From the NCBI GenBank assembly GCA_951406725.2, contig OX597832.1, positions 62,001 to 126,000 on the forward strand: 64,000 nt of DNA, written 5' to 3'. The notes under the pieces were generated by a model. The model was given only the letters and a program-made list of their open reading frames with translations. It ran no database searches and was not told the DNA's origin. Shown here one piece after another: positions 1 to 57,050 of the stretch. This DNA is from Octopus vulgaris. Its lineage: Eukaryota. Position numbers and translations under genes: made by a program. Within the stretch, counting starts at the first letter, position 1. Every line of letters begins with the position of its first letter.

Positions 1-44
1 CCCAGGCCGCGCACATTTAAACAACCAACATAAATGTAATCCAT
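1..44 (-). CDS. Start of Tx1 ORF2 (APE endonuclease N-terminus)
   Basis: Translates MDYIYVGCLNVRGL, matching the APE motif I (LNVRGL) and KLGCLNVHVL of the ORF2 at 38931. Confidence 0.75.
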   Translation of the reverse strand, partial: MDYIYVGCLNVRGL

Positions 45-53
45 TACTTACCT

Positions 54-1403
54 TTATATCAGTGGTTCGGTTTTTTCTTCTTCTTCCTTCTCTTTTTCTG
101 GGCCTCGTGGGGGAGTCTGACGTAGGCCCTCGAATATATGTGGAGATGTTACATCCAACCTAAGTGGGCCTACGTCATGGAAGAATTCTGACTTTATCCG
201 CCCGTAATCCTTCCGGTCTATTTTGTAAATTGCAAAGTCATTTTTTTTTCTACTCTCTTCACATTGGCCATGGCTGCCAACACGTTTCCGAGTCTGCTAT
301 TTGATGCTTTTACGGCCATATATGAGTTCATTGACTCTTTTTTCTTTTTTAAAATTACTCTGGGAGGGGTGGTTTCCGTTTTTCTTTTTTTTTTTCCGAT
401 AATTTTTGCCCACCCCTCCTCATTTATCTTTTCTTCGCTCTTTTTTTCTCCGCCGCTGGTTCTGCTGTTACCATCACCTCCACACCTTCAGTCTTCCCAT
501 CTGGGCCGTCTGACGCTGCTTCTGGTGACACATTGTCTTCTTTTCCTTTTGGCTTAGGTGCTTCCTGCGGTTTGGGTTGGGGCTGGCATTCCGCCCTTAC
601 ATGCCCCTTCTTACCGCAGCCGAAGCACCTCGGCTTTCTGCCCTCTACGAAGACTGTGACTCTTTCATCTTCGCTTATCCTAAGAGTCTCTGGGATCTCT
701 TCCAGGGTTTGTACTTCTGCTTGTATGGCTATTATTATCTTTTGCCCTTTCCAGAATTCTTCTTCTTCTACGGTGGCCTGGAGGATGTTTATTTTTTCCT
801 CCAGGCCTACCATAACTGCTGCCACTAGGACTTCGGCATCCGCTTCTGGCGGGATGTTGTTCATAGTGATTTTGGAAGTTCTCTTGCCTTTATACAGGGG
901 TAGGAGAACAATATCCTCCGCTTTTATGGGTTCCATGGATAGCTTCTTCGCTACCTCCTCTGACGTGAATCTCACCTCCACTGTGCCGTATTTCTTCCCT
1001 CGATTGATATACGTAATTTTATCCATTATTGGCTTTAAGCAGTTTTCAATCTTTTTCTCCTCTATTTTTTGGATTGCTCTGTTTGTTATACTGAATGTCT
1101 TATAGATTATTCTCCTATTCGAAATATCCTCCTGTATTTGGGCGTTTGAAGCCACGGTTACTTCCGTGCCCTCTTTTGACACACAGTCCGCATGTTTTCC
1201 CAGGTTGTCCACGTTAATTTTTTTAATTTTCTTCCCAGCCACTTCAGCGAATTTTTTTGCTGGAGTTGATGCTGGTACTGGTTTTACCATTTTCTTGGGC
1301 GACGCCGCCTCTTTTTCTTCGGCGACAGCGCCTCTTTTTTTCTTGGCGACAACGCCTCTTTTTTACTTGGCGACAACGCCGGGTATTCATCCTCGCTCGT
1401 CAT
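54..1403 (-). CDS. LINE ORF1 (gag-like RNA-binding protein, zinc knuckle); core ORF 424-1290, extended across homopolymer frameshifts
   Basis: ORF 424..1290 carries a CX2CX4HX4C knuckle. Adding one base at the runs 1312-1316 and 441-447 joins an upstream ATG (1403, MTSEDEYPALSPSKK...) and a downstream EEGWAKIIGKKKRK segment. That segment resembles QEWVVIGPSKRKRK in the 37989 ORF1. The end at 54 needs a third +1 at 241-249 and is less certain. Confidence 0.7.
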
Positions 1404-1661
1404 GGGCGAATAAGTGATGGGGGACTCCATTTTGAACAAATGGCTTTAACAAGCCTTTGGTAATCTAAATTAATTGTAGTTTTCCCCCACTGAGGGGGGA
1501 ACACCAACGCGAAGTCTTCGCGCGAAGGTTGACTTCGTCCGTTAGACAACAATGGACAAAAAAAGGTAGACCAACAGTATATAATAACAGAGATAAGTAG
1601 TATGAGAGCAAAAATATATATCAACTTACTAATAACGCAATAAATTGATTTCCTCCATGTG

Positions 1662-3428
1662 ATTTTATTACTACCCACAAGGGGCGAACATAGAGGGGAC
1701 AATACAATCGGGGAACTTAAAATAAGAAAGCGAAATGACAAGAAGGGAAAAAATAAAAATAAAAATGACAAATGAAAGAATATTTACAATGAGATGCAAA
1801 TGCCCACTCGATCCCCGGAATCGAGAGGTTACATTTTCGTCACATATAGTTCACAATTTTTTTTTCCTTTTTTCTCTTCTTTCTTCTCTCTCCTCTCACA
1901 ATCTCACACGTATTCCATAATACCTTTCAAGTCTCTAAAGTCAATCACTGAGCCCTCAGGCAGCCGCTCTTTCATTCGAACACCCGTGTAAAAAATTACA
2001 CTCTCTCCAGCTGCTCTGAGGAACTCAGCGACTCTTTCTTCGGGGATCAGAGCAGTCTCCTGCCACTGATCAGTCATCCTGTTGACCCACACATGTCCCT
2101 CCATACTACATGTCAATTCCTTCATTTCGGGGCTGAAATGGAAGGTTATTAACTTGTAGTAATCTTGTTTCCGTCCTACGTTTTCTCTCGTTTTTCTTTT
2201 CGGGCTTACTTCTTCCTTGTTCTCCTCTCTTTGTTTCTCTCTTTCTCTCTTTTTGCCTTCTTTTCTTTCTCCTTCCTTCTCTTGTCTTTTTGGTTCTTTG
2301 TCTGTTCTCTCTTTCTCTCGTGTTTTATGTTCCTTTTCTTTTTCTTTTTGTGTGCCGTCTTTTCTTTTCGTTTGATTCTGATCTCTCTCTTGTTTTTTTC
2401 CTGTTGTTTCTTTTTCCTTTTTCTTTTCCTGACTCTGTTTTGGTTCTATTTCTTTCTTTTCTTTTATTTCTTTTTCCTTCATTGACTTATTATTTCCTTT
2501 CTCTTGTTGTTTTGTTTCCTTTTCTATGTTTTCTTTTTCATTTACCGTATTCTTCTTTTCGAGTTCCTGCTCGCACTCCGCTACGAATTCGTATAACGGG
2601 CACTCTTTTTTAATGTGCCCCCTTGTCCCGCACAAGTAGCAGTTTGGCTTTCTTCCCTCTACAATTACACTGAGGGTTTTCTCGTCTTCGATTTCTATTC
2701 TATAGGGGAACCTTTCAATGTCCTCTTTTGTGGCCATCAAACACAGTTCTACCCCATATCCTCTCCAATTTACTGCGTTGGACTCCTTAAAGGATTCCAC
2801 CTCCACTTCCTCTTCTGCTGCTCCTAGAATAGCTGTTGCCAGCCATTCTGTTTTTACTTCTGGGGGTATATTCGGGATTTTAACCCGGACCCCTCTTCTT
2901 CCCTTGTATGAGGGCCACATTATAAATGTTTCCGCTCTTAGAACAGTGGTAGCCAGTGAGGCTGCAATTTCTTCCGTTGCACATCTCACCTCCACCGTAC
3001 CAAATTTTTTTCCTCTACTCACGTAGGTCGATTTATCCATTATGTCTCCCAGACATTTTTCGATCTCTACTATCTCCACTCTTGCCAGTTTCTTTGTACT
3101 TTTGTCCTGGGTTCTATACGTTACAGTCTTGTTTTCTTTGTCCTCTTTTGCTTTCGCGGGGGGATTAGCTTCACGCTATCACCCTCCCTTTTGAATAGCT
3201 TTTCATATTCTTTGATTTTACTTTTCTCAAAGAAAACATCCTTCACGATTATCGACGAATCATTATTTTTCTTTCCCGTGACCCCCGCGTAAGTCGCCAT
3301 GACTAGAGGGTCAATTCACCTTCTTCGGAAGGTTTCCACAGGTGGAGGCAAACGCCTCGCGCGATATTAATCACTTTACACAACAAAATTTCAACTTCTA
3401 ATCACAGATAACAACACACGTGGGTAAA
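1662..3428 (-). mobile_element. ORF1-only non-autonomous non-LTR retroelement (HAL1-like, Tx1-derived) with 13-bp TSD
   Basis: Flanked by identical TTTCCTCCATGTG at 1649-1661 and 3429-3441. Contains a short 5'UTR, one gag-like ORF and a Tx1-style 3'UTR ending in AATAAAAT. No endonuclease or RT sequence. Confidence 0.8.
1904..3300 (-). CDS. ORF1 (gag-like, CCHC knuckle, charged C-terminal region)
   Basis: ORF 1904..3079 has CYLCGTRGHIKKEC and RGKKFGTVEVR, homologous to ORF 424..1290. One extra base in the G6 run at 3158-3163 joins it to the ATG at 3300 (MATYAGVTGK). Confidence 0.78.
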
Positions 3429-3965
3429 TTTCCTCCATGTGTTCAAATCTTTTTTTCCTCTACATTGTATACTTTATAGACAATAGTCTTTTCTTTAATT
3501 TAATTTTTTATTATCCATCTGGACTATTCCATTTCTGCACGCTAATTTTATTTTTAATTTATTCCCATTCATGTGAAACCACTTATTCAAGTTCAAGTCA
3601 TTGATGCAATTTCATACCAATTGCTATTTTTACTTTTGTTATGTTACGATTATATTATACTTTAGTTTGATTTTAACTATTACTTACTACATATAATTCA
3701 ATTGTTATTATTATTTTTATTGTTAAAGTGAAAGTATCTGACATAAAATAGAGAAATGTTTTTGTTTCACTTTTAACACGTAATACTGAAATAGTGGAGA
3801 AGATATGATATTGCTATGGGCTTGCCCTAGTCAAGAAGTTGAACATTTTTTTTGCCCATGAAACTACTTGGATGCTAAGTAAGGCATGTGTTAAATTTGA
3901 ATGAAATTGTTTGTGTAGTTCTCAAGTTTTAGGGAAACACTCAGACAGACAGACACACATTCTCA

Positions 3966-3970
<5 letters not shown>
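3429..3970 (-). mobile_element. Non-autonomous Helitron, 5' half, interrupted by retroelement insertions
   Basis: Near-identical to 4542-5090; the similarity ends exactly at the 13-mer 3429-3441. Confidence 0.8.
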
Positions 3971-4009
<39 letters not shown>

Positions 4010-4010
<1 letters not shown>

Positions 4011-5099
4011 TAGCATTAAAGACCCGTCGTTGCCGGGTCATAGTGCTAGTGCATGTATATATGTGTACATATGTGTCTTGCAAACAACTTGCACGTGCAA
4101 GTGCTACCAGTTAAAAGCTCCATATATCGGAAGCTAGCAAGTGTATTGGGTCATCTACACATAAAATACAAAATACAAAGCTATATCTTGATATTGCTAG
4201 TGATAACAATACTCAAAATACTCAAAATATATAACAGACTGGAATTGTTAGCCCGTCTCTTGTAATTTCGATCAATTGTATCTTGTCCTCCCTCTTGTAT
4301 AGAAGTGTGGCTACAATCCTGCCTACCTCTACTTCGGGGGGTGGGGTGGGGGGCATTAAAAATTTTTTTCCGGAACGTCCTACGTCCCAGATATAAAGGT
4401 AAAAATAAGATATTTCCACTTTGTAAGTTCGAGTCGAGTACTCCCTTGCATGCTCCGTTGACTCGAACCTTGCTTCTATTGTGGCGAATTTACCGCCTCT
4501 GATACCTTTCATAGTCGCACCAAGACACTTTTCGAAGGCGCTTTCCTCCATGTGTTCAAATCTTTTTTTCCTCTACATTGTATACTTTATAGACAATAGT
4601 CTTTTCTTTAATTTAATTTTTTATTATCCATCTGGACTATTCCATTTCTGCACGCTAATTTTATTTTTAATTTATTCCCATTCATGTGAAACCACTTATT
4701 CAAGTTCAAGTCATTGATGCAATTTCATACCAATTGCTATTTTTACTTTTGTTATGTTACGATTATATTATACTTTAGTTTGATTTTAACTATTACTTAC
4801 TACATATAATTCAATTGTTATTATTATTTTTATTGTTAAAGTGAAAGTATCTGACATAAAATAGAGAAACATTTTTGTTTCACTTTTAACACGTAATACT
4901 GAAATAGTGGAGACGATATGATATTGCTATGGGCTCGCTCTAGGCAAGAAGTTGAACATTTTTTTTTTTGCCCATGAAACTACATGGATCCTAAGTAAGG
5001 CATGTGTTAAATTTGAATGAAATTGGTTGTGTAGTTCTCAAGTTTTAGGGAAACACACAGACAGACAGACACACATTCTCAGTTTTATATATATAAAGA
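4010..5099 (-). mobile_element. Complete non-autonomous Helitron carrying a captured LINE ORF1 fragment
   Basis: Minus strand: 5'-TC (5099) with a (CTGT)n tract near the 5' end, subterminal hairpin CCCGGCAACGACGGG and 3'-CTAG (4010-4013), inserted between A and T. Confidence 0.85.
4222..4605 (-). pseudogene. Captured Tx1 ORF1 fragment inside the Helitron
   Basis: KTIVYKVY...MEESAFEKCLGATM..RGGKFATIEARF..PPEVEV..EDKIQL aligns with the two neighbouring ORF1s. Confidence 0.75.
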
Positions 5100-5110
5100 T
5101 ATATATATAT

Positions 5111-5271
5111 ATATTCTGTTGTGTCTGGGGGAGAGTCATGTTCTTTTTGTGCCATATAATTTAATGCAGTCACTGGTAAAATTTTAAGAAAATAAAAAAT
5201 AAGTGGAAATTTTACTGGTGAAATTATATGGCACAAAAAGAAAATTGCTCTCCCCAGACACAACAGAATAT
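5111..5271. repeat. Inverted repeat, arms about 65-75 bp (MITE-like or inverted PLE terminal repeat)
   Basis: ATATTCTGTTGTGTCTGGGG..TTCTTTTTGTGCCATATAATTT on the left and its reverse complement on the right. Confidence 0.7.
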
Positions 5272-5339
5272 GCTTCAACAAACAAACTCACATAAAGAAT
5301 CTTGCAAACCAAATCCAAAAATGAAATATATATATATAT

Positions 5340-8300
5340 CATGAAGCCAGACAGCCACCTTATAACCTATCAATCAGGGAACTGTGCTAGCCAGATTGAT
5401 TTCATCCTCACCAGACAGTGGGATGCAGGGTTGCTCTTAAACAAAGATCTTCCCATGTGAAGAATGTACTCCCCAGCATAGGCTAGTCATTAGTAACTTT
5501 AGGCTAGAGGCCAGAAGGATACCTAGAAGCAGACCAATCCAGAAAAGAGGATTTGGAAGCTAAAGAACCCTTCACACAGTCAGAGATTTAGGGACATCCT
5601 CATCAAGAAATTTGATGAGCGGGAGGAGGAGCTACAGACGTCGGACATAGAAGGTAGCTGGAAATTCCTATGGGACAGCTTGCTGAGTGCCATCGACCAA
5701 GTCTGTGGATGGTGCAAAGTCCCTTCCAGACCCATTGGTATGTGGTGGTGGAATAGTACGGTAGACAAAGCCATTAGGGCAAAGAAACAAGCGTGGAAAG
5801 CCTGGAAGGATGGTGGTAGCAGGGAACGGTACCAGGTAGCCAGAAGGGAGGCTGGACTGCAGGTATACATAGCCAAGGGCGAAGCAGAAAAGAAGAAGTT
5901 TGCCAATGTCCAGAGACGTGAGGACCAAAGAACTGAAGTATTTCAGATTGCAAAACAGTGTGTAAGAGAAAATTGTGATTTCACAGGAGAGAAATGTGTT
6001 CGAATGGATGATGGTGCACTTGCTTTTAGTGATTCTGAAAAGAAAGATGCTTGGAGAAGCAATTATGAAAGACTGCTGAATGTGGAGAATGAATGGGAGG
6101 AGGAGAGCCTTCCAAATGTTGACCCAGTAGAGGGACCAGCTATCCCAATAGAGAGCTCCCTAGTAGATAAAGCAATTAAGGGCATAAAGCCAGAAAAAGC
6201 CCCTGGCCCATCAGGAATCACTGCTGAGATGCTTAAAGCATCTGGTGGTGTAGGCTATGGCCTAGTCACCCGCATTGTAAACCAGGTAGTACATAACGGA
6301 GTCATACCCAATGACTAGCGTAGCAGCACCATATTCAACTGCTACATGGGTAAAGGTGATGCTCTAGATCGGAATAACTACAGGGGTATTAAACTGCTGG
6401 ATCAGGTGATGAAGGTTACAGAGAGGATCATAGTTCATCTCATTAGGGAGAGAGTCTGCTTAGATGAGATGCAGTTTGGTTTTGTTCCGAATAGAAGCAC
6501 CACTGATGCCATATTCCTGGTTCAACAACTGCAGGACAAATACCTAGCTAAAGATAAACCCCTCTACTTGGCTTTTGTGGACTTGGAGAAAGCCTATGAC
6601 AGGGTCCCCCTATCCCTTATCTGGTGGGCAATGCGGAAACTGGAGATTGATGAATGGTTGATAAGGGCTGTACAGGCCCTATACAGAGAGGCCGTTAGTA
6701 AGGTTAGGATTGGCAACGAGTATAGTGAAGAATTCCGGGTCCACCAAGGTTCGGCCCTTAGTTCCCTTCTATTCATCATAGTCCCCCAGGCAATAACAGA
6801 GGAATTCAAGACGGGTTGCTCCTGGGAGATCCTCTATGCTGATGACCTGGCCCTACAGGAACTAGAAAAGAAATTTCGGGTGTGGAAGCTAGGTTTAGAT
6901 TCAAAAGGCCTTAGAGTCAATGTAGCAAAGACCAAAGTTATAGTAAGCAGAAAGGCGAACTCATCACACACACCCTTTAAGCAGGTGGCCCTGTTTGATC
7001 TATAGAAATGGTGTAGGTAGAAACTCCATAAGATGTACCCAGTGTAAGCTATGGATGCATGAGAGGTGCAGCAACATCAAAGGAAAATTAACCGAGAAGA
7101 TAGCTTTCATGTGCGGCAGATGCACAGGGGCAATAGACACCACAGATGCTCAGAAAATTGATTCCATCACACTCCAGGTGGAGAAACTAGAAGTAGTTGA
7201 TAGTTTCTGCTACCTAGGTGACCAAGTTAGTAGTGGAGGTGGATGCTCAGAGAGTGTCACCACTATAATACGAATAGCCTGGGCAAAGTTTAGAAAGCTC
7301 CTACCCCTACTGGTGACAAAGGGTCTCTCGCTCAGAGTGAAAAGTAGATTGTACGTTGCATGTATGCGAACTGCCATGCTTCATGGTAATGAAACACGGG
7401 CTGTGACTGCAGAGGACATGCGTAGGCTTGAAAGAAATGAAGCTAGCATGATCCGCTAGATGTGTAACATCAGTGTGCACACTCGACAGTGTAAGCACCC
7501 TGAGAGAAATGCTGCACATAAGAAGCATCGGATATGGTGTGCAAGAGAGACGTTTGCGCTGATATGGTCATGTACTACGGATGGATGAGGAGAGATGTGT
7601 GAAGAATTGGCACTCTCAAACAGTTGAATGTATCCGGGGGAGAGGTAAACCCTGGAAGACATGGGATGAGCTAGTCAAGTATGACCTTCGAACGTTGGGC
7701 CTTACAGAGGCAATGATGAAAGACCGAGATCTCTAGAGATATACTGTGACTGCAAAGACCCGACAAATAATGTGAGTTCATGGCTGCTTGCTACACCAGT
7801 TTCGCATAGCCTCAACCCATCCAAAGTACCTTGGATTGCAGAACGACCTGCTTTGTTTACCTTGGATCGTAGGGTGACCTGCTGTGCTTGAGAAGACCTA
7901 TTGAGTCAAATACATCAAAATAAATATCAAATGGAAATTGTAGTTGTGATACCTATGCTGGCGGCACGTAAAAAGCACCATCCGAACGTGGCCAATGCCA
8001 GCGCCGCCTTGACTGGCTTCTGTGCCGGTGGCATGTAACCTGCTGTGCTTGAGGAGACCTATTAAGTCAAGTACATCAACATCAAAATAAATATCAAATG
8101 GAAATTGTAGTTGTGATACCTATGACAGTGGCACGTAAAAAGCACCATCCGAATGTGGCCGATGCCAGTGGCGCGTAAAAAACACCATCTGATCGTGGCC
8201 GCTGCCAGCCTCCCCTGGCACTTGTTCTGGTGGTACGTAAAAAGCACCCACAACACTCACAGAGTGGTTGGTGTTAGGAAGGGCATCCAGCTGTAGAAAC

Positions 8301-22056: not shown

Positions 22057-22410
22057 TATGTGCCACCGACACAGGTGCCAGACGAGGCTGGCAGATGGTC
22101 ACGCTCGGATGGTGTTTTTTTATGTGCCACCGACACAGGTGCCAGACGAGGCTGGCAGACGGCCACGCTCGGATGGTGTTTTTTATGTGCCACCGACACA
22201 GGTGCCAGACGAGGCTGGCAGACGACCACGCTCGGATGGTGTTTTCGGTGTTTTCTTATGTGCCACCGACACAGGTGCCAGACGAGGCTGGCGAACGGCT
22301 ACGCTCGGATGGTGTTTGTTACGTGCCCACAGCACGGAGTCCAGTCAATGCGGTACTAGCTACGGTCCCGTTCGGATGGTTTTCTTATGTGCCACCGGCA
22401 CTGGTACCAC
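22057..22410. repeat. ~63-bp minisatellite in the RTE 3'UTR
   Basis: TGTGCCACCGACACAGGTGCCAGACGAGGCTGGCAGACGGCCACGCTCGGATGGTG repeated four times plus degenerate units. Confidence 0.9.
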
Positions 22411-22562
22411 AAGGATACAAATTCCATTGATGTTCATCTATTTTGATTTGATTCGATTTGACTTTCACTTGCCTCAACAGGTCTTCACAAGTATCACAAG
22501 CAGGAAGGTATGCACAGGTGGACTGACTACGTCCCAGGTAGGGGCCATGGGTTATGGCTTCA

Positions 22563-25500
22563 CTAGTCTTGCCGGGTCTTCTCACGCACAGCATACTTCC
22601 ATAGGTCTCGGTCTCTAGTCATTTCCATGGTGAGACCTAACGTTCGAAGGTCGTGCTTCACCACCTCGTCCCAGGTTTTCCTGGGTCTACCTCTTCCACG
22701 GGTTCCCTCAACTGCAAGGGATTGGCACTTTCTCACACACCTATCTTCATCCATTCTCGCCACATGCCCATACCAGCGCAATCGTCTCTCTTGCACACAA
22801 CAACTGATGCTTCTTAGGTACAACATTTCTCTCAAGGAACTAACGCTCTGTCGAGTAAGTACACTGACATTACACATCCATCGGAGCATACTGGCTTCAT
22901 TCCTCATGAGCTTACGCATGTCCTCAGCAGTCACGGCCCATGTTTCACTGCCATGTAGCATGGCAGTTCGTACACATGCATCATACAGTCTGCCCTTTAC
23001 TCTGAGCGAGAGGCCTTTAGTCACCAGCAGAGGTAAGAGCTCCCTAAACTTTGCCCAGCCTATTCTTATTCTAGCAGTTACACTCTCAGTGCACCCACCC
23101 CCACTACTGACTTGGTCACCTAGATAACGGAAGCTATCAACTACTTCTAATTTTTCCCCTTGGAAAGTGACGGAAGTTGTTTTCTGCAGATCTTCGGAGG
23201 TCAATGCTCCCGAGCATCTGCCACATACAAAAACTATCTTCTCAGTTAGCCTACCTTTGACATTGCTGCACCTCTTATGTGTCCATAGCTTACACTGGGT
23301 ACATCTTATAGAGTTTCTACCTACACCTTTTCTACAGATCGAGCAGGGCCATCTTCCTGAGGACATTTGTGGATTGTCTACCTTCCTACTTATTAGTACT
23401 TTGGTTTTAGCTAGGTTGACTCTAAGGTCCCTCGATTCTAAACCCTCCTTCCACACCTGGAACTTCTCCTCCAGTTCTGATAGTGACTCAGCAATTAGAG
23501 CGAGGTCGTCAGCATAGAAGAGCTCCCAGGGGCAACCTGTCTTGAATTCCTCCACAATTGCCTGGAGGACTATGATAAATAGGAGGGGGCTGAGTACTGA
23601 ACCCTGGTGGACCCCAACCTCTACTTTGAATTCTTCTGTGTACATGTTGCCAACCCTAACCTTACTTACGGCATCTCTGTACATGGCTTGCACAGCCCTC
23701 ACCAGCCATTCATCTATCCCTAGTTTCCTCATTGACCACCAGATGAGGGATCGGGGGACCCTGTCAAAGGCTTTCTCCATGTCAACGAAAGCCAGGTACA
23801 GGGGCTTATCTTTGGCTAGGTATTTCTCCTGCAGCTGCCTTACCAGGAATATAGATAGCATCAGTGGTGCTTTTCCCTGGCACGAACCCAAACTGCATCT
23901 CATCTAAACTAACTCTCTCTCTAATTAGTTGGGCTATGACCCTCTCCGTATCCTTCATTACCTGATCCAACAGCTTGATACCTCTGTAATTATTAGTATC
24001 TAGGGCATCACCTTTACCTTTGTAGCAGTTGACTAGTATGCTGCTACACCAGTCATTGGGTATGACTCCTTCGTGTATCACCTGGTTGACTATACAGGTG
24101 ACTAGGTTATAGCCGACACTGCCAGATATTTTGAGCATCTCTGCAGTAATTCCTGATGGGCCTGGGGCTTTCCCTGTCTTCATGCTTCTAATTGCCTTAG
24201 CTACAACGGAACTATCAACTCGGATAGCTGGTCCCTCTGTTGGGTCAACATTCGGCAGACTCTCTTTATCCCATTCATTTTCTTTATTCAGCAACCTTTC
24301 ATAGTGGCATCTCCAAACCTCTCTCTTTGCATCCTCATTTAGCGCAAGTGAACCATCATCCATGCGAACACACTTCTCTCCTACCACATCATGATTCTCT
24401 CTCACACACTGTCTTGCAACACGAAATACCTCAAGTCTTTCATCCTCACGGCGCAGAACATTGGCAAATTTTTTCTTATCCGCTTCCCCTCTGGCTAAAT
24501 AAACCTGTCTCCTAGCTTCCCTTCTGGCTGTCTGATACAATTCCCTGCTACCACCGTTCTTCCAGTCCTTCCAAGCCTGTCTCTTTTGTCTAATAGCCCT
24601 GTCAACCACAGTGTTCCACCACCATGTTACTCTGGGTCGAGATGGTACTTTGCTCCATCCACAGATCTGGTCAGTGGCTGTCAGCAGATTGTCCCGTAGA
24701 AATCTCCAGTTGTCTTCCACATTAAGTGAAGCTATATCCCCTTCTATTTCGTCAAAGGCTTCGAGTAGTATGTCTCTAAATCTCTGTCCATTTGCAGGAT
24801 CTTTAAGCTTCCAGACCCTTCTCCTCCAAGCTGGTCTTCTTCTGGGCAACCATTTAGCTCTGATCCTGAAGTCGCTAACTACTAATCTATGTTGAGGAGT
24901 ACATTCTTCGCCTGGAAAGGTTTTGGCATTTATAATCAGCCCTCTTTCCCTTTTTCTGGAAAGGATGTAGTCAATCTGGCTGGTGTGTCTGCCAGAACGG
25001 TAGGTGACTAGGTGAGAGGTGGGTTTCCTGAAGTTGGTATTGCAGACCATAAGGTCATTTGCATCGCAGAACTCCAGCAGCCTGGTTCCCTCCTCATTAC
25101 GAGAGCCAAAGCCGTAGCCTCCATGGATGCCATGGAAGCCCCCAACATGCCGTCCGACATGTCCATTGAAATCACCTGCCACGAAGAGAAGGTCACTGTC
25201 ATTTGTCAACGAGGTAGTCCGCAATAGGGTGTCATAGAATTGGTCTTTTTGTCCTTCCGGTAGTCCTGGTTGAGGGGCATATGCCGAGATGATGGTAGCT
25301 GTCCTGTGGTGAAGGACTAATCTAATTTTAATTACTCTGTCACTTACTCTGACTACCTCGATTACCTTACCTACCCATTTCTCCGCAAGTAGTATACCCA
25401 CGCCCCCGACCCCGTCAGTGTTCCCTGCCCAGAAAATCTTGTACCTGTGTTCCTTGCCTGTGAGGAGCCTAGCGGAACCTCCTCTCCACCTTACTTCCTG

Positions 25501-25686
25501 AATACAACATACATCCACACGTCTCCGTTCAAGCAGCTCTACAATCTCTCCAGACCTACCTTTCAATGTGCCAACATTGAGTGTGCCAACTCTGAGGGTG
25601 TGGGAGGTGTAGGCCTCTGAGACCCTGGGATGAGGGACAGTCGTGTCATGTACCTGAAAAGAAAGCTTGCAGTTGGCAGATTTCAT
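22563..25686 (-). CDS. RTE ORF: APE endonuclease + reverse transcriptase + PHD insert; one frameshift
   Basis: GTLNVGTL, CIQEVRW, AGDFNGH, QIDYIL, QHRLV, then QGSVLSP and YADDL. The two ORFs (626 aa and 446 aa) are split by a 4-bp ATAG duplication near 23851-23858. Confidence 0.9.
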
Positions 25687-25963: not shown

Positions 25964-27169
25964 GAAGGAGCAACGAGAATGAATATAAATCGTACGGAGT
26001 ATTACCCACCATCTAGAAACTTTGGAAATTTAGTAGAACATAATTTAAATGAGAGGGAGCGAGATAGTACTTTGTAAAGGAATCATGGGGAATGGAATAA
26101 CACGGGGAGGCCTGAAAACAAAGAAGGAATTGAAACAGACAGGAAGCCATGTTAACAACATGGCGATATAGATAATAGAGAAACGGGATTAGGTTTATGA
26201 TCAACGCTTAAAAGTATGAATATGAATGGCAGGTGAAAAGTTAAGATCGCTTAGCTGGTCATATTTCTGAGATCCGTGTTGTCATCAAGTAGCTTGAGAA
26301 ATGGGACGAAATAAAATCGTACACTGGTTTATAAGGAGTTAGGGATTGGGGGGGGGGGTGAGTAAAACAATTTAAATGAGAGGGAGCGAGAATAGTACTT
26401 TGTAAGGAATCCTGGGGATGGAATAACAGGGTGGCCTTGAAAGCAAAGAAGGAATTGAAAAGACAGGAAGCCATGTTGACAGTATGGCAATATAGATAAT
26501 AGAGAAACGGGATTTGGTTTACGATCAACGCTTAAAATATGGGGTTGAATATAATTCATAGGGAATATTACACACCATCTAGAAACTTTGGAAGGAGCAA
26601 CGAGAATGAATATAAATCGTAGGGAATATTACCCACCATCTAGAAACTTTGGAAATTTAGTAGAACATAATTTAAATGAGAGGGAGCGAGATAGTACTTT
26701 GTAAAGGAATCATGGGGAATGGAATAACATGGGGAGGCCTGAAAACAAAGAAGGAATTGAAACAGACAGGAAGCCATGTTGACAACATGGCGATATAGAT
26801 AATAGAGAAACGGGATTTGGTTTACGATCAACGCTTAAAATATGGGGTTGAATATAATTCATAGGGAATATTACACACCATCTAGAAACTTTGGAAGGAG
26901 CAACGAGAATGAATATAAATCGTAGGGAATATTACCCACCATCTAGAAACTTTGGAAATTTAGTAGAACATAATTTAAATGAGAGGGAGCGAGATAGTAC
27001 TTTGTAAAGGAATCATGGGGAATGGAATAACATGGGGAGGCCTGAAAACAAAGAAGGAATTGAAACAGACAGGAAGCCATGTTGACAACATGGCGATATA
27101 GATAATAGAGAAACGGGATTAGGTTTACGATCAACGCTTAAAAGTATGAATATGAATGGCAGGTGAAAA

Positions 27170-27170
<1 letters not shown>
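25964..27170. repeat. ~303-bp tandem repeat array upstream of the RTE ORF
   Basis: Near-identical segments giving near-identical short ORFs at 26013, 26640 and 26943 (last spacing 303 bp), plus a variant unit around 26360. Confidence 0.9.
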
Positions 27171-27231
<61 letters not shown>

Positions 27232-33229: not shown

Positions 33230-36200
33230 TCATCATCATCATCATCGTTTAGCGTCCGTTTTCTGCACTAGCACGGGTTGGACGGTTCGACCAGGTTCTG
33301 AGAAGCCAGGGGCTGCACCAGGCTCCAGTCTGATCTGGCAGTGTTTCTACAGCTGGATGCCCTTCCTAACGCCAACCACTCCATGAATGTAGTGGGTGCT
33401 TTTTACGTGCCAGGGGAGTCTGGCATCGGCCACGATCGGTTGGTGCTTTTAACGTGCCACCGGCACGGGAGCCAGAGGAGACTTGTCAAAGTGTGCGTTT
33501 TTTGCCCTAGTAATCACACCTTTTACGATAGGGATTTCTAACCTAGTCCACTTGCATCTTCACCTCATTTGGCATTGACCACGTTCAGTTGTTGCTTTTT
33601 ATGTGCCACCGGCACAGAAGCCAGTCGAGGTGGCGCTGGTATCGGCCACGTTCAGATGGTGCTTTTTATGTGCCACCGGCACAGAAGCCAGTCAAGGCTG
33701 CACTGGGATCGGCCACGTTTGGATGGTGCTTTTTATGTGCCACCGGCACAGGTATCACATCTACTATTTCCATTGATATTTATTTCAGTGTTCATGTACT
33801 TGACTCAATAGGTCTCCTCAAGCACAGCAGGATGTTCTGGAATCCAGGTACTTTGAATGGGCAGGGTCTATGCGGAACTGGTGCAGGAAGCAGCCCGGGT
33901 CTTTGCAGTCACAGCATATCTCCAGAGATCTCGGTCCTTCGCCATTGCCTCTGTGAGGCCCAGCGCTCTGAGGTCATGCTTGACTATCTCATCCCATGTC
34001 TTCCTGGGTCTACCTCTCCCCCTGATACCTTCAACTGTTTGGGAGCGGCACTTCTTCACACATCTCTACTCATCAGTAGTACATGAGCATACCAGCGCAA
34101 ACGTCTCTCATGCACACCACATCCAGCATTTCTCTCAGGGCGCTTACACTCTGTCGCGTGTGCACACTGACATTACACATCCAGCGGATCATGCTAGCTT
34201 CATTTCTTTCAAGTCTACACATGTCCTCTGCAGTCACGGCCCATGTTTCACTACCGTGAAGCATGGCAGTTCGCACACATGCATCATACAATCTACCTTT
34301 CACTCTGAGCGAGAGACCCTTTGTCGCCAGTAGGGGTAGGAGCTTTCTAAACTTTGCCCAGGCTATTCGTATTCTAGTGGTGACACTCTGAGCATCCACC
34401 TCCACTACTAACTTGGTCACCCAGTAGTGGAAACTATCAACTACTTCTAGTTTCTCCCCCTGGAGTGTGATGAAATCTGTTTTCTGAGTATCTGTGGTGT
34501 CTATTGCCCCTGTGCATCTGCCACACACGAAAGCTATCTTATCAGTTAATTTCCTTTTGATGTTGTTGCACCTCTTATGTGTCCATAGCTTACACTGGGT
34601 ACATCTTATGGAGTTTCTACCTACACCTTTCCTACAGATCGAGCAGGGCCACCTGCCCGAGGGGGTGTGTGCTGAGTTCGCCTTTCTGCTTACTATAACT
34701 TTGGTCTTTGCTACATTTACTCTAAGGCCCTTTGATTCTAACCCTTGCTTCCACACCCAAAATTTCTTTTCTAGTTCCTGTAGTGATTCTGCTATGAGAG
34801 CCAGGTCATCAGCATAGAGGAGCTCCCAGGGGCAACCTGTTTTGAATTCCTCTGTTATTGCCTGGAGGACTATGATGAATAAAAGGGGACTGAGGGCTGA
34901 GCCTTGGTGTACACCTACTTCTACCCGGAATTCTTCACTATATTTGTTGCCAATCCTAACCTTGCTGACAGCCTCTCTATATAGGGCCTGTACAGCCCTT
35001 ATTAGCCATTCGTCAATCTCCAGTTTCCGCATCAACCACCAGATAAGGGATTGGGGGACCCTGTCAAAATCCACAAAAGCTATGTAGAGGGGTTTATCTT
35101 TAGCTAGGTACTTCTCTTGCAGTTGTCGGACCAGGAATATAGCATCAGTGGTGCTTCTACCCGGCACAAAACTGAACTGCATCTCATCTAAGCAAATTCT
35201 CTCCCTAATGAGATGGGTTATGACCCACTCTGTGACCTTCATCACCTGATCCAACAGTTTAATACCCCTGTAGTTATTTCTAACTAGAGCATCACCCTTA
35301 CCCTTGTAGCAGTTGATTATGGTGCTGCTACGCCAGTCATTGGGTATGACTCCATTATGAACTACCTGGTTTACAATGCGGGTGACTAGGCCATAGCCCA
35401 CATAACCAGCTGTTTTAAGCATCTCAGCAGTGATTCCTGATGGGCCGGGGGCTTTACCTGGTTTCATACCCCTACCCCTAATTGCCTTAACTACAAGGGA
35501 GCTGTCTATTCGGATAGCTGGTCCCTCTGCTGGGTCAACATTTGGCAGGCTCTCCTCCTCCCATTCATTCTCCACATTCAGCAGTCTTTCATAATGGCTT
35601 CTCCAAGCCTCTTTCTTTTCACCATCATTAAAAGCAAGTGCACCATCATCCATGCGGACACATTTCTCTCCTGTAACATCACTATTTTCTCTCACACACT
35701 GTCTAACAATCCAAAATACCTCAGTTCTTTGGTCCTCACGTCGCTGGACATTGGCAAACTTCTTTTCTGCTACATCTTTGGCTATGTGTACCTGCCGCCC
35801 AGCCTCCCTTTTGGCTACCGGGTACAGTTCCCTGCTACCCCCATCCCTCCAGGCTTTCCAGGCCTGTTTCTTTGCACTAATAGCTTTGTCTACTGCACTA
35901 TTCCACCACCAAGTAACTCTAGGTCTGGAAGGGACTTTGCACCATCCACAGACTTGGTCTGTGGCACTCAGCAAACTATCCCGTAGGAATCTCCAGCTAC
36001 CTTCTATGTCTGACGTCTGTAGCTCCTCCTCCCTCTCATCAAATTTCTTGATGAGGATGTCCCTAAATCTCTGACCATGTGAAGGGTTCTTTAGCTTCCA
36101 AATCCTTTTTTGGATTGGTCTGTTTCTTGGAATCCTTCTGGCCTCAAGCCTAAAGTCACTAATGATTAGCCTATGTTGAGGGATACATTCTTCACCCGGG

Positions 36201-37899: not shown

Positions 37900-40800
37900 A
37901 TGAAAAGATTATATTTGGGGGACAATATTAACAGTTAGCTCATGAAAAAAGACAGCAAGCAGATTAGTGAATAGATGATACATTTTAAGTGTTGGATGCC
38001 GTTGACTGTTCCGTCATTCTCTATCTTGTTCTCATGGGCCTAGAGGATAAAATTACCATTCTGCAGGCGACCAGCTACCACCACATGAACTGGGTCGGAC
38101 AGGCTTTAGAGCTGGTCATTCAAGTAAACCCCCTTGATTTGAAAGAAATGCCAAATTCAATTTTAATTGGGGAAAATACCAGCCTGATGGTGGTAGTCGA
38201 GGGGTGCAAGCCGAGGTGTTATAAATGTGGCGAGAAAGGCCACATAATGTCGAATTGCGAGAAGGAAAAAGACAACGAAGATGCAGTAGAAAAGGCAAGT
38301 GCACCACCAAGTAAAACGACCACACCACTAGAAATAGCAGCCACGTTGCACACACAGACAAAAGAACACCCAGCAGCATGGGAAGACACCAACAACAACC
38401 AGGAGTGGGTTGTCATTGGACCATCAAAGAGAAAGCGGAAACGGAAAGACCCCCCCTTTCGGATACACAGAATTATCCACAAATACAGCCACAAGCACAC
38501 ATGTAGCCAAGAAAACACACGCACTAAAAAAAGCACAGGCATCCACAAGCACACACACACCTACAAACACCCACACATCTACAAGCACACATACACCCAC
38601 TCCTCCACATTCACTAATAAAAATGATAAACAAAAACAATAAACTCTTACGAGAGAAAATGCTATTAATGAAGTCATCGAAAAAATATAATGTAGCAGAA
38701 TCAAACAGTTCTATTCTCGCAAATGCCAAATTTTACACTGTTTCAAACTAAAAAATCATTTGCGGAGGATGTCGGCCCGTTACAGATTAACTTCCTGAGT
38801 CATTTGTAGAGGCAATTTTCAAAAATGACTGCGCAAACCACAACACCTACAGACAGGAAAGAAGAGGGTGAAACTATACTCTTCATCCTCTTAAAACTGT
38901 AAGTTTTTAAATAACAGTTAATTTTTCACATTGTCGTTTAAACTCGGTTGTTTAAATGTACATGTTCTGGGTTCAGATTGGAAGCAAGGCTGTCTCCTTG
39001 ACGACTTCAGGTTGCATTGTTTGGATGTGGTTGTAATTACCGAATCCGGACTGAGTGGGTTGCAGGCTTTTTCACCCCTCCTAAACAGCTACGAGAAATA
39101 CGTTTCTCCCTTCCGACCAGGAGGGGGTGGAGGGGTCACAATGCTAGTCAGGAAAAACCTGGATTTAGAGATGAGAAGTGTCTTTATAGATCCAGAAGAC
39201 AGGCTAGTTGTTTTGGATGTGATGCACATCAGTGGTAAAGTGTTTAGGCTGGTTGTTGTCTATGCTCCCTGCGAAGGAAGAGCCATACAGTACGATTACT
39301 TCAGAAGCCTAGAGAATTTTCTAGGCATGCCGAACATGTTAGTATTGCTAGGCAATTTTAACACAATCTGCGATGCACGCGTAGATTATGTTGGCTTGAG
39401 ACAGGATAGGAGGGGATACCCTTGCCTCAGCGGTCTGCTAAGTCGTTTTGAGTTGGCAGACTGATTCAGACTGGACTATCCAGATCTTACATAGAATCAT
39501 TACAAGAAGAAAAGATAAGAAAATACTTAGCTGTCCACAACACCATATCGTCAGCTACAGTAATCACAAATTAGTGACCTGTATGCTTGACTTAGATAGT
39601 ATGTGTAGACGAGGTACAGGTTACTGGAAGCTAAACAAGTCGCTATTGGACTGTGAAGCCTACAGGAACCGGATTAGACAGTTAGTAATGAGGGCATTAA
39701 CTGGATCCATTATCAACAACAAATGGTGGTTTGCCCTCAAAAGAGCCATAAAATTCGAGTCAATTAGGTTTAGAAAAGAATTAGCTAGTGCTAGAAACAA
39801 AGTAGAAAGGGAGCTAGTTGAGGCAGTAGAAGAGGCAATGAGGTCAGGCTGTGCATCAAAAGTGTTAGTGGTGAGGTTGGCACTAGACCAACATCTCAAA
39901 GCTAAACATGTTGTCAGGGCGAAGATACATGCAGTGAGACAGGAAGGGATCAATGCAGTTGGATGAGCCTGGGTGGTGGAGAGCCAGCGTGGCAACAACT
40001 CAATCATTCTGTCTTTGACAGACCCACATGGTTGATCAGTAAACAAACCTGAGGAGATGTGCAAGGTGTTTCACGATCATTTCGCCCAGCTTTTCAGGAG
40101 GGGCGGTGGACTGGAGCATGGGGAGAAACTCGCAGACTTTCTGTCCGGTTCACCATGTCTCTTGGGGCAGCATGCAGAATCTTGTGAAGTGCCGATCATA
40201 GCCAAGGAGGTTGAGGATGTGTTGGCAGACTGCGGTGGTGACAAATCACCGGGACTTGATGGTCTGCCTTACAAACTCTATAGTAGCATGCCAGACTTGT
40301 TTGGGCACCTACATGCAGGTGTGTACACCAACTGGCAGCAGAAAGGGAGAATTCTTAAGTCTGTGAGCTGGGGGTGGGGTGGGGTGTAGCGCTGTTAAGA
40401 AAGAACCCAAACAAGGGGGACTTAATTAATAATTTTCGGCCCATCACTCTGCTTAACGCAGAGTTGAAGATTTTGGCCAAGGTCTTAGCAAAAAGGTTGG
40501 CATGGGTTTTGGATGGACTTGTTGGCGAGGTGCAAACGTGTACCATCCCTGGCAGGACTGTTCACGACAAACTTCCTTTTCTATACTATGCATTAGAAAG
40601 GGTAAATAGGGTTCCTGGCAAGGGTGGAGCTATGGTCAATTTAGACCAATCCAAAGCATTCGATAGGGTGGACCATCAGTATCTGACGGTGGTCCTCATG
40701 GTGGCTGGCTTTGGCCTGACCTTCTGTAGATGGATCACTGCTTTATACAGCAACATCGAATCGCTAGTTCAGGTGAACAGTTTCTTTTTGGAGCCGTTCT

Positions 40801-42476
40801 GCATTGAATGATTAGTATGTTATGGGTGCCCTCTCTCTACATTTTGGCCCTCGAGCCATTGCTGAGGAAGTTGGAGGCTATGAGGGGCTCTCCGCAAGAT
40901 CTAGGGTGCAGAAAGTCAGTTTTGGCGTATGCTGATGACATCACCATTATTGTATCCCGGGTCAAGCACTTACAGTGTGTGGGTGAAGCCTTAAGGGATT
41001 ACGAAGCGGTGGCAGGAGCGAAAATCAACCAGGATAAATCGGTTGGCTTGCAACTCAGCACCTGGAGGAGCAAGTTGATGCCTTCCGACAGTGTCATGAG
41101 ATGTTAGACGGAAGGGCCAGTGAAAATGCTTGGAGTCTGGTTTGGTCCAGATCTCCAGATAGAGAAGAATTGGAGCAAGGTGGCTCTCCTAACTCAGACC
41201 TGGTTTGAGCAGAGGCTATCCTTAAAAGGGAGGGTGGAAGTTGCAGAGGTGTTCATCGCCTCTGTAATCAGCTACCGCCTGACCATCGTACCTTGCCTAG
41301 ATTTGTGGCTGAACAAGGTGGAATGTGTGCCCTTCCACTTTTTGTGGAGGGGCAGCAGACCTCTTGTAAGGTGCTCTATCTGCTGCCAAAAGCCACTGAA
41401 GGGTGGGCTAGGGATGCTGTAGCTAAAAATGTGCAGTTATGTGCTGAGGCTTAGGCACCTCTGGCTTTACCTGTACAGTGATCAGGTGTGGTCTGCATGA
41501 AAATGTTATTTCTGCAGTTCACATTGTTTTCTGGACTGGACCCATGGATCATGTGTAGACCAAGGTTGGGTGCATGGCATGCAGAATGCCATCAGGCACT
41601 AGTGCTTCTTTCCCAGTTGGGCAACACCGGTAGCGGGTGTACTACCTCGTTCTTCTCTAGAAGGTTAGTAGAATTGAAGCGTGATGACATCCTGGGAGAA
41701 ACCCTAGGCTTCGATGAAGATCAACTTACCAACCTATTCCAAAGAACATTCAGGCCAGGGCCTATGGATAATTACCAGAAGTCCCTGGCCTGGCTATGTT
41801 ACAGAGGAGCTTTACCGGTTCGAGGTAAGCTCTGCCGGTTTGTGAAAGATGTGAGCAAGACAGTGAAACTGTCCTGCACATGATTGTGCAATGCCCAAAG
41901 ATGACTGAACTTTGAGCTTATGTCGAACACCTTCTGTCGCATTCGAGAAGTGTACAACTGTCAAGCGAATCTGTAATTAAGATCGTTCCGCTGCCCTCGC
42001 TGAATAGGGAGGAGTGAGCTTGTTTTCTCTCGGTAGTTGCTGTTGCAAAAGAGGTAGTATGGAAGACGAGAGTGAAAGGAATTGCAATAGGCAGTTTCAT
42101 CTCCAGTCTCGGGTTCATTGACTTTTTCGTTTTCCACATGAAACAGAGAATAAGGCTGGAGAAGAAATGCCTGTCACAAAGTGTGTTTCGTAAAAGATAG
42201 AAGTCTGTAGCTAGCATGTTGTGAGTGAAAGAACCTGTCTAAACGAGAAGAAAAAAAGGGAAAACAACAAAGTCTTCAGTGTGAGAATGTGGTTTGTGGG
42301 GTAGACCGTGTCCTACGCTTCATTTTATGTTTATACATTCATTCGCATTTTATTGTATATATTTAAAATTATTTATGCATATGTTTTGTCCCATTTGATC
42401 CCCTGACCCTGTGTTTGTTTTGTCTGTCCTCATATCGTCCCCTCTTTTTCTTAACTTTATATGGTAAATAAAGAAA
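37900..42476 (+). mobile_element. Decayed Tx1/L1-clade LINE (ORF1 + ORF2 + 3'UTR)
   Basis: ORF1 knuckle CYKCGEKGHIMSNC. ORF2 GCLNV, LLGNFN, SNHKLV, GTGYWKLN, KSPGLDGLP, FRPITLLN, DQSKAFDRVDH, YADDIT, GGLGM. AATAAA near 42467. Confidence 0.9.
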
Positions 42477-42829
42477 TTGACTGTTCAGGAGTTCCTCTGC
42501 CCTTTGACGAGTCTTATTTTTTATTCCGCTGGGTGTCCAGCAACACACTTCTCACCAAGCAAGCCTGGTGGGGTTGCCAGTTTAGTCGCCGACCTCCCAA
42601 CCATGTAACAGGTTGTACTGGATTACATGTTACCAGTAGCACTCAAGAGTGACCTGACATATATATGTTATTTTTTTTTATATGTATACATACGTATATT
42701 TTTACTTTTATATACATATTTATATTTATTGTATACCTTTTACTTTTTTATATTTATATATAATTCTTATTTACATTTGCAAATCACATATACTTGTTTG
42801 CTTTTCTTTTTTTATGTATGAATGAGGCA

Positions 42830-54661: not shown

Positions 54662-57050
54662 ATCGTGATCATCATCATCATCATTAATTAATGTCCAGTT
54701 GGATGGTTTGATGTGGAGTTGGCTAGTGGGGAGCTGTCTGGATATTAACTGCCTGTTGTGGCATGGTTTCTGTGGCTGGATGCCCTTCCTAATGCCAACC
54801 ACTTAACAGAGTATGCTGTGTGCTTTTTATGTGTTACTTTATGTGTGGAAGACAGCGATTTTACTTAGCTTGATGTGTCTTATCAAGTACAGCAAATCAC
54901 CACATCTCCTGGTTCCTTGTCATTTCTGTAGTGTGTCCCAGCATCTGAAGATCTTTTCTCACCACTTCATCCCACATCTTCCTGGGTCCACCATTTCCAC
55001 AGGTACCCTCCACAATTAGAGCTCAGCACTTCTTTATGCAGCTGTCCTCATGCATACGCATCAAATGATCAAACCAGTGCAGTCTTCTCTCTTGCACACA
55101 GCATCTGATGGCCCTTATACACAGTTTTCCTCTTAAATCATTTACACACTGACATTACCCATCTGACAGAACATGTTGGCTTCATTTCTTTCAAGCCTTC
55201 ACAGAAGCTATTTACTTCTTCTAATGAACCACCTGAGCATTTGAAGGAGCCTGTCGTCTGTGTATTTTTAGTGTTTATTGTACCTGCACATTTGCCACAC
55301 ACACAAAGGCTATATTCTCTGTTAACCTTCCTTTGATACTGCTGCACCTCTTATGTGTCCAAAGCCTGCACTGGGTACAATGTATGGAATTTCTGCCAAC
55401 ATCCTTCTTACATATTGAGCTGGGCCATCTCCCAGAAGGGACTTATGGTCTGTCTGTTTTCCTACTTACTTAGACTTTGGTTTTTGCTAAATTTACCCTA
55501 AGGCCCTTAGATTCCAGACCTTGTTTCCACACCTGAAATTTTTTCTCTAGGTCAGGTAGTGAGTTCAGCTATAAGAACTAGGTCATCAGTATAGAAGAAC
55601 TGCCAGGGACAGCCAGTCTTGAATTCCTCTGTTAAGGCCTAAAAGACTAGGATAAATGGGGCTGAGAACTGAGCCTTGGTGGACTTCTACCTATACACTG
55701 AATTCATTACTATCCTCATTACCAACCTTCACCTTACTTGCAGCATCCCTGTACATGGCTTGTACTGCTCTCACTAACCACTCATCTATCCCTAGTTTCT
55801 GCATTGACAACCAGATAAGGGTTTTTGGCTAAATATTTCTCCTGCAGTTGCGTAACCAGGAATATAGGATCAGTCATGCTCCTACATGGAACAAGTCTGA
55901 GCTAGCTATTTCATACAATTTCCTGCTACCCTGACACTTCCAATTCTTCCAGACCTGTTTTCTCTAATGGCCCTGTCATCTACACTGTTCCATCACCATG
56001 TCACCTTAGGTCAAGAAGGAACTTTGCACCAGCCACAGATTTGTTCAGTAGCCCTCAGCAAGTTGTGCTGTAGGAACCTCCAGTTGTCCTCCATGTTGTA
56101 TGTCACTATATGTTCCTCTTTTTTGTCAAATGCTTCAAGTAACACATCTCTAAATCTCTGTTCGTTCAGAGCATACTGTTCGTCTTCTTGGCAGCTATTT
56201 AGCCCTGATCCCGAAGTTGCTAACAACTAACCTATGTTGTGGGACGTTTTCTTCACCTGGGAATGTTATGGCATTTATAAGCAGCCAACTTTCCCATTTT
56301 CTGGTGAGAATGTAGTTGATCTGACTAGTGTGCACACCCAATTGATAGGTGAACAGGTGATTGGCAGGTTTCCTATAGTATTGCAGATCATAAGAACATT
56401 TGCATTGCAAAATTCTAGTAGACTGGTTCCCTCATTATGAGAACCAAATCCATTGCCATCATGCATGCCATTGTAGCCACCTAGATGTTGCCCAACATGT
56501 CCATTAAAGTCGCCAACCACAAAGTGAAGGTCCCAATGAGGTGGTCTGCAAGAGGATGTCATAAAAATGGTCTTTCTGTTCATCATGTAGATTTGGCTGA
56601 GGGCATAGGCTGAGGTAATGGTTGTTGTTCCATGCTGCAACACTATTCTTAGCTTAAGTATTCTATCACACCTTGATTACCTTATCAACCCATTTCTCAG
56701 CTAGAAGTATGCCCATGCCTCCTACCCCATTACTAGTCCCTATCCAGAAGATTTTATACCTATATTCTTTGTTTGCGAGGAACCTAGCAGAACCTCCTCT
56801 CCACCTTCGTAGATGCAACACACATCTACATGCTTCCATTCAAGCATCTCAACAATCTCGCCAGACCTACCTTTCAATGTGTCTACATTACGTGTGCTAA
56901 CTCTGAGGGTGTAGAAAAGCGTGGGTCAGGAAGACACAGACGAGGGACAGCATTTTGCATCTGAAAATAAAGCTCGCATGTATGTTTCACAGGCATATTA
57001 TATAAGTACAAATAGGTTTCAACCTGCATTTACTTCACTGTCATTTTATT
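54662..57050 (-). mobile_element. Old RTE LINE (PHD-insert family) with internal deletions
   Basis: TLKGRSGEIVEML, VGDFNGHVG, PQHRLVV, EQICGWCKVPS and CVCGKC; (GAT)n tail. Confidence 0.85.

Follow-up and report, generated by a model that had tools for sequence, protein, structure and literature searches.

An ORF1-only retroelement, probably of a non-autonomous Tx1-like family, inserted in tandem with a related LINE in Octopus vulgaris

The window analysed here, a stretch of 64,000 nucleotides of Octopus vulgaris DNA (contig OX597832.1, positions 62,001 to 126,000), carries at its left end two retroelements arranged in tandem on the same strand. The first, referred to below as the unit, has the layout of a half-LINE, that is, a single unit with a 5'UTR, an ORF1 and a LINE 3'UTR from which ORF2 is absent (Table 1). 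The second, the neighbour, begins immediately past the 3' duplication of the unit and has an endonuclease-like ORF2 that starts, at 44, 9 nt past its ORF1 stop. A third, decayed element at 38-42 kb was used as the comparison LINE. Two further elements of the window have ORF1s that are homologous to that of the unit and stand before EN/RT sequence, with an APE ORF2 following a CCHC-type ORF1.

Table 1. Positions of the features discussed in the text, numbered from the first letter of the window.
Feature	Position	Strand	Remarks
Unit, 1767 bp	3428->1662	-	bounded by two identical 13-mers
5' copy of the 13-bp target-site duplication	3429..3441	-	same 13-mer as at 1649-1661 and in the empty site 4542-4554
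3' copy of the 13-bp duplication	1649..1661	-	also the 5' flank of the neighbour
5'UTR of the unit, 128 nt	3301..3428	-	putative internal promoter
ORF1 of the unit, ATG to stop	1904..3300	-	two frames (59 + 423 codons; 465 if one break)
C run at the frame break	3158..3163	-	relatives P0011/P0012 align colinearly with the frame on each side
Two tandem RRM-like domains	2648..3166	-	model residues 4-93 and 94-176; pLDDT >90
CCHC zinc knuckle	2597..2644	-	Pfam PF00098
Helix and Lys/Glu-rich, mostly disordered linker	2174..2590	-	pLDDT <50 over 231-296 and 321-335
C-terminal alpha/beta domain	1907..2173	-	fastest-changing part among copies
3'UTR of the unit, 242 nt	1662..1903	-	begins directly after the ORF1 stop; no poly(A) tail
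Hairpin in the unit 3'UTR	1825-1807	-	
AATAAA in the unit 3'UTR	1669-1664	-	
Neighbour, L1/Tx1-type element	1..1648	-	5'UTR, ORF1, start of ORF2; rest beyond the window
Full 9-nt splice-donor consensus at the neighbour's ORF1 stop/ORF2 start	46..54	-	putative function
Host repeat, filled copy (5' half)	3442..3970	-	head to tail with the empty copy
Host repeat, empty copy, ~1.08 kb	4010..5087	-	flanked by TA arrays; contains a GTCT microsatellite; CTAG follows a 3' hairpin
Empty copy of the target site	4542..4554	-	same 39-nt upstream flank; continues into host sequence
Decayed third L1/Tx1-type ORF1 fragment	4258..4621	-	profile iE 8.7e-13; blastp E 1e-12
Comparison LINE, L1/Tx1-type	38013..42477	+	decayed, 5'-truncated; own, different 10-bp duplication
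3'UTR of the comparison LINE	42225-42477	+	

The original prediction described a 1767-bp unit with a target-site duplication (TSD) of its own and a 128-nt 5'UTR (measured at 3428-3301), and these boundaries were borne out by the identical 13-mers and the empty site. Both ends of the unit are intact, and the 13-mer has a chance expectation of about 0.002 in the window, both strands considered. A repeat search alone measures the duplication as 14 bp, and comparison with the empty site revealed that both inserted elements start with T; since the empty site fixes its length, the TSD is 13 bp and not 14. The 5'UTR has no significant likeness to that of the neighbour (39 of 500 and 103 of 1000 shuffles scored as well), and no motif common to the two 5'UTRs was significant in shuffle tests.

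The insertion lies in a repeat that is present in two copies separated by a TA array (3442-5087, minus strand). The duplicated flank is 97.4% identical over 573 bp, and the two host copies differ by 10 mismatches in 544 columns. By comparison with the elements described in PMC4067079, the host repeat is a candidate Helitron/DINE-1-like non-autonomous element. Within it, the relic of a third ORF1 (4621->4258) contains the target site in sense orientation. Rfam at the gathering threshold gave 0 matches in the window, and the target is therefore not a known small-RNA gene. Other repeats of the window include, at 5111-5271, a short palindromic MITE that is flanked by TA and has perfect terminal inverted repeats of 20 nt, as well as a 303-bp tandem repeat (96% matches) at 25964-27171 and a 275-bp near-perfect duplication at 63277-64000.

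The neighbour occupies the very same target base as the unit, so that two different elements, one base and one 13-bp duplication length were seen together at one locus. As two unrelated elements at one base with the same duplication length suggest insertion directed by sequence, the arrangement points to target-specific insertion of the unit, with a preference that is known from one locus. By way of comparison, the criterion for target preference given in the relevant section of PMC4494074 is that more than 20% of the flanks fall in one repeat. That unit and neighbour are adjacent, on the same strand, both young and both inside the repeat might also be explained if the unit had not been targeted on its own, being instead part of a composite with the neighbour (a read-through transcript) or cargo of the Helitron-like host. 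However, the internal 13-mer is native host sequence, as expected from two successive insertions, and for SINEU-3 the same question was settled as sequential insertion in the portion of PMC4494074 devoted to it; we regard this explanation as very improbable.

The unit ORF1 is read in two frames, 3300->3124 (59 codons) and 3175->1907 (423 codons). In a blastp search of 156 proteins the 59-codon piece matched the N-terminal ends of related ORF1s (E 3e-6 and 1e-4), and it was also recovered by profile search (iE 2.6e-6). These N-terminal matches, together with the alignment, put the break at the C run, and the proposal of an ORF1 of about 465 codons after one correction could be upheld. No 465-aa version of it is annotated among the protein matches. 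The run at 3163-3158 is the sole long C/G run in the unit ORF1, and the break there is either a mutation or a long-read error. Programmed frameshifting at this run is unsupported, as the relatives read straight through it. Frame breaks near homopolymers occur in both the unit and the neighbour ORF1, in the latter near A runs; a 24-bp tandem repeat (1290-1380, minus strand) lies in the N-terminal part of the neighbour ORF1, where its frame breaks.

The only Pfam match of the unit ORF1 was the CCHC knuckle (PF00098, E 7e-5, above the cut-off). An AlphaFold2 model built on a 101-row alignment contains two confident RRM-like domains, each with a beta-alpha-beta-beta-alpha-beta order. The best Foldseek match of the model was IMP3 RRM12 (E 3.2e-5), with tandem-RRM proteins as the top matches, and VIA-align matched it to the La RRM (Z 9.0, rmsd 2.8, 83 aligned). 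In the ESM Atlas the ORF1 core matched unnamed CCHC clusters at 0.91-0.93 and, as a lead only, the ZCCHC3 RBD cluster at 0.89. When solved structures were searched by sequence with the 101-row alignment, the significant rows were zinc-knuckle matches only. The ORF1 of the unit is of the RRM+CCHC 'type I' in the sense of PMC5203782.

The C-terminal domain was also modelled as beta-alpha-beta-beta-alpha-beta, at lower confidence (pLDDT 50-84). It had no usable match in the ESM Atlas, and its homology to other ORF1 C-termini was marginal or absent (46 of 944 and 11 of 200 shuffles were as good); the P0040 model, tried as a comparison, was too weak in this part. A weak search for short C-terminal fragment proteins had a single candidate and found none (0 of 1). 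The idea that the last ORF1 codons derive from an ORF2 C-terminus was rejected, with 1263 of 3000 shuffles scoring as well. Five of the six closest relatives end at the same last residue as the unit, and marginal scores lend marginal support to an ORF1 that would run to its natural end.

No trace of ORF2 was detected in the unit when tblastn was run with three frames of the ORF2 at 38920-42230 (no match at E<=1), and the sole match of a 975-aa EN-RT open reading frame was antisense (E 0.68). Neither ORF2 source therefore gave a match in sense, and the absence of an ORF2 remnant stands as it was predicted. The 975-aa frame (34073-37000, minus strand), with an endonuclease, an RT and a C-terminal PHD-like finger, belongs to an unrelated LINE family that has 67-86% identical copies at 5339-8033, 22253-25595 and 54869-56978 and whose 3' end carries tandem repeats of 64-67 bp. 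In the comparison LINE, Pfam identified Exo_endo_phos and RVT_1 domains at 38-41 kb after an ORF1 homologous to that of the unit. Among solved structures its RT at 40.4 kb matched human L1 ORF2p at E 6e-12, versus R2 at E 3e-3, by which an assignment to the L1 group is supported. The label 'Tx1 type' is likely for the unit, which has no RT of its own.

The 3'UTR of the neighbour, the candidate partner, lies outside the window. The unit 3'UTR follows the predicted order of purine tract, hairpin, T-rich tract, C-rich tract and AATAAA, and it was said to mirror the 3'UTR at 42240-42476. The two are indeed colinear. Their local alignment scored 53, a value attained by 1 dinucleotide shuffle in 500 and, for block shuffles, by 21, 3 and 3 in 500, and the global alignment (148 identities in 276 columns) was reached by 7, 4, 0 and 1 of 500 block shuffles. 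With the unit's own reverse complement set aside, the comparison 3'UTR was the best of 5077 window tiles (72.3 versus 58.0 for the next unrelated tile). The last 70 nt, on the other hand, gave no significant similarity (166 of 1000 shuffles as good), and the hairpin sequences differ, the comparison LINE having a weaker, different hairpin in the same place. The likeness is above chance and in part a matter of shared composition, and it does not extend to the hairpin sequence. The unit 3'UTR (1662-1903) is in addition loosely self-complementary, with a purine tract on one side of the hairpin facing a pyrimidine tract on the other. No other tile scored as high as its reverse complement, but whole-UTR folding (z -0.92 and 0.36) was no better than that of shuffles.

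The two 3'UTRs align from the first bases after their respective stops, which are the ORF1 stop in the unit (followed by 242 nt) and the ORF2 stop in the comparison LINE (followed by 253 nt). This register implies that ORF2 is gone from stop to stop, and a random deletion that spared the whole ORF1 and the whole 3'UTR would be unlikely. A one-off internal deletion of an autonomous element, during or after insertion, or a collapse in the assembly would be compatible with the single locus available as DNA and with the homopolymer frame breaks of unit and neighbour, the assembly having been made from Nanopore and 10x reads (PMC13282606, Methods). Nevertheless, a deletion of this kind would need both breakpoints within a few tens of bases of two stops, and the tblastn searches found no ORF2 relic in the unit. 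We consider such an accident improbable.

Splicing would offer a mechanism for so clean a loss. In a spliced retrocopy, similar to the spliced L1 insertions (SpIREs) known in human (PMC5860796), an autonomous family with the same ORF1 would splice out its ORF2, and the ORF1-only mRNA would occasionally be retrotransposed in trans, leaving copies that are by-products and do not form a self-propagating family. A perfect donor falls in the 9-nt ORF1-ORF2 spacer of the neighbour; with both strands counted (128 kb in all), the window has no other match to [AC]AGGT[AG]AGT. In the comparison LINE a GTAAGT, a 6-mer that occurs 28 times in the window, is found at 38899-38904 (plus strand), about 40 nt before the endonuclease start. 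The stop codon of the unit together with its next base ends in AG, like the end of an exon, and the stop-to-stop precision of the loss is also as splicing would have it. The donor observation was made post hoc and in relatives, the parent being outside the window, and the motif in the neighbour may simply result from the presence of two in-frame stops. Furthermore, none of 635 candidates was a longer (742-2115 aa) fused ORF1-ORF2 protein with the unit core, in a weak search that returned such proteins for no family at all. Copies arising only as spliced by-products are the main rival to the explanation favoured below and seem to us rather unlikely; as a hypothesis for the founding event, ORF2 may have been lost by splicing from a donor right past the ORF1 stop to an acceptor near the ORF2 end.

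In a protein search with the unit ORF1, 10 matches were obtained among 7998 candidates scored, all labelled Octopus vulgaris. Four clusters, of 6, 9, 7 and 4 members (26 sequences), are 93-98% identical to the unit ORF1, and two more are 82-84% identical. The close clusters sit on chromosome-size sequences of 225.7, 128.6 and 182.4 Mb. Since each cluster is listed with one contig, 26 members need not equal 26 loci, and what can safely be counted is four or more distinct close sequences, located on three or more chromosomes. The unit ORF1 is therefore multi-copy in Octopus and not single-copy, as the original prediction of a family required, and at this degree of identity the copies found are young. 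An autonomous family could give rise to 26 ORF1 models as well, considering that 421 recent near-full-length L1-Tx1 insertions in 13 families, averaging about 5.4 kb, are reported for O. vulgaris in Table 1 of PMC13282606; copy number does not discriminate between the explanations. The source names of P0001 and P0006 include accessions in RefSeq style for 'uncharacterized' loci, a hint that relatives are annotated in other assemblies too.

The unit and four copies showed 0 differences in the 46-aa stretch of the RRM2 end and knuckle, whereas as many as 13 of 92 residues differed in the C-terminal domain, a count made on five protein sequences and not equivalent to a dN/dS test. This contrast between core and C-terminus, together with changes common to the copies, is suggestive of several coding source elements. 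P0004 and P0005 differ from the unit mostly in the C-terminal domain and are nearly identical to it elsewhere, a pattern that could reflect either fast evolution or recombination between subfamilies.

When the full library was searched, 447 relatives were obtained at E<=0.001. A tree was computed from those rows, 41 of 158, in which 140 or more of the 186 core residues are covered; in it the unit fell in a 15-row clade (95/92), apart from a 4-row clade (97/97) that holds the neighbour, whose own ORF1 is 92-93% identical to P0016. Unit and neighbour ORF1 are 37% identical over 186 aa. The separate clades exclude the neighbour's family as the parent of the unit, and the loss of ORF2 is not dated thereby. 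It had been argued that an ORF1 so diverged from that of the neighbour could not belong to a recent deletion derivative. The divergence is real, both in identity and in clade, but it excludes the neighbour's family only. There could be, in another place, an autonomous parent whose ORF1 is nearly identical to that of the unit, and 37% identity does not prove the family to be long-lived, as had been proposed.

For a LINE-type insertion at a common site, an ORF1 with an RNA-binding fold, the absence of ORF2 from one copy and a young ORF1 in several copies, the explanation we favour, with some reservation, is that the unit represents an ORF1-only non-autonomous family of a Tx1-like lineage that follows the HAL1/HeT-A/Ag-Sponge strategy and is moved in trans. 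This reading rests on one locus as DNA, the other copies being known as proteins that ORF2 may follow. The lineage would lead from an L1/Tx1-type ancestor through a clean loss of ORF2 to a young ORF1-only copy. Its own 5'UTR would drive an RNA of about 1.8 kb, which the RRM-RRM-CCHC protein, to judge by its domains, might then coat. The LINE-type 3'UTR would recruit the EN/RT of an autonomous, target-specific relative, most simply one of the neighbour's family, and the unit probably moves with such a full-length relative's enzyme; a borrowed ORF2, as originally suggested, is the sole way in which this ORF1-only unit could have inserted. On the sequences at hand the neighbour's family appears a better candidate donor than the comparison LINE, which is disfavoured as a partner because it is decayed and 5'-truncated and has a different 10-bp duplication. 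The outcome of the final step is seen at the locus, where the unit went in at exactly the base that the neighbour had used, with a 13-bp duplication, within the ORF1 relic that the putative Helitron-like repeat carries, and the two elements stand in tandem around a common duplication. HeT-A sits in tandem with its autonomous partners.

The known ORF1-present non-autonomous LINEs come from the L1, Jockey and CR1 clades, and Tx1 is not named in the part of PMC5786205 that lists them. HAL1 of mammals, as characterized in PMC5753468, shares with the unit the order of 5'UTR, ORF1 and 3'UTR, the lack of ORF2, the L1 group and the need for ORF2 in trans. Unlike HAL1, the unit has a mollusc host, an apparent target specificity, no poly(A) tail and an independent origin, and its RRM-RRM-CCHC ORF1 differs from the coiled-coil/RRM/CTD protein of HAL1. 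Membership of mammalian HAL1, marked by a type II Transposase_22 ORF1, was rejected in view of the zf-CCHC as the only Pfam domain, the two RRM folds with a knuckle and the Octopus host. HeT-A (Jockey clade) and Ag-Sponge (CR1 clade) are likewise bipartite non-autonomous LINEs with ORF1 (PMC5786205, same part), but belong to other clades, and the unit has no telomere role.

As regards targeting, the same section of PMC4494074 describes Xenopus Tx1 in Tx1D and Tx1-Mar with SINEU-3 in Mariner-N4_AMi, and tandem insertions that sandwich a TSD inside a DNA transposon are common there to the non-autonomous SINEU-3 and to Tx1-Mar. The unit appears to share with these a fixed site in another transposon, TSD-sandwiching tandems and a non-autonomous passenger with its partner's target. 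In octopus, by contrast, the passenger has an ORF1 of its own, its target lies in an ORF1 relic of a putative Helitron-like repeat and one locus is known. The birth of the unit by LINE RNA splicing would be a likeness to SpIREs. In the latter, sequence from the 5'UTR or ORF1 is lost, and they are portrayed as dead ends (PMC5860796), whereas the unit keeps its promoter region and ORF1 and loses ORF2. No ORF1-only Tx1 element and no description of this octopus family was found in the literature searched, nor was an ORF1-only element mentioned in the main-text portion and supplement of the O. vulgaris repeat paper that were searched (PMC13282606); Repbase, Dfam or the Zenodo library of that paper may already hold it.

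A bolder proposal, which we hold to be doubtful, combines these elements. Octopus Tx1-like LINEs would splice out ORF2, and one such RNA would have founded an independent, target-specific half-LINE lineage with an evolving ORF1, perhaps the whole 15-member clade, which would hijack the site-specific endonuclease of a relative and stack in tandem in an ORF1 relic spread by the Helitron-like repeat.

If the preferred reading of an ORF1-only family is true, a Tx1-like lineage in a mollusc would offer a young, multi-copy and target-specific case of an ORF1-only element, and the strategy would be one that recurs. Should the bolder proposal hold, a fourth clade would have ORF1-only parasites, together with a concrete route of origin. 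The findings also serve as a warning that several Octopus gene models of the 'uncharacterized protein' kind are transposon ORF1s. Lastly, a family of this type would make it possible to ask in one genome why a LINE parasite keeps ORF1, in terms of the cis preference of ORF1 and the trans use of ORF2, and in that same genome whether ORF1-only elements are born by splicing or by DNA deletion.
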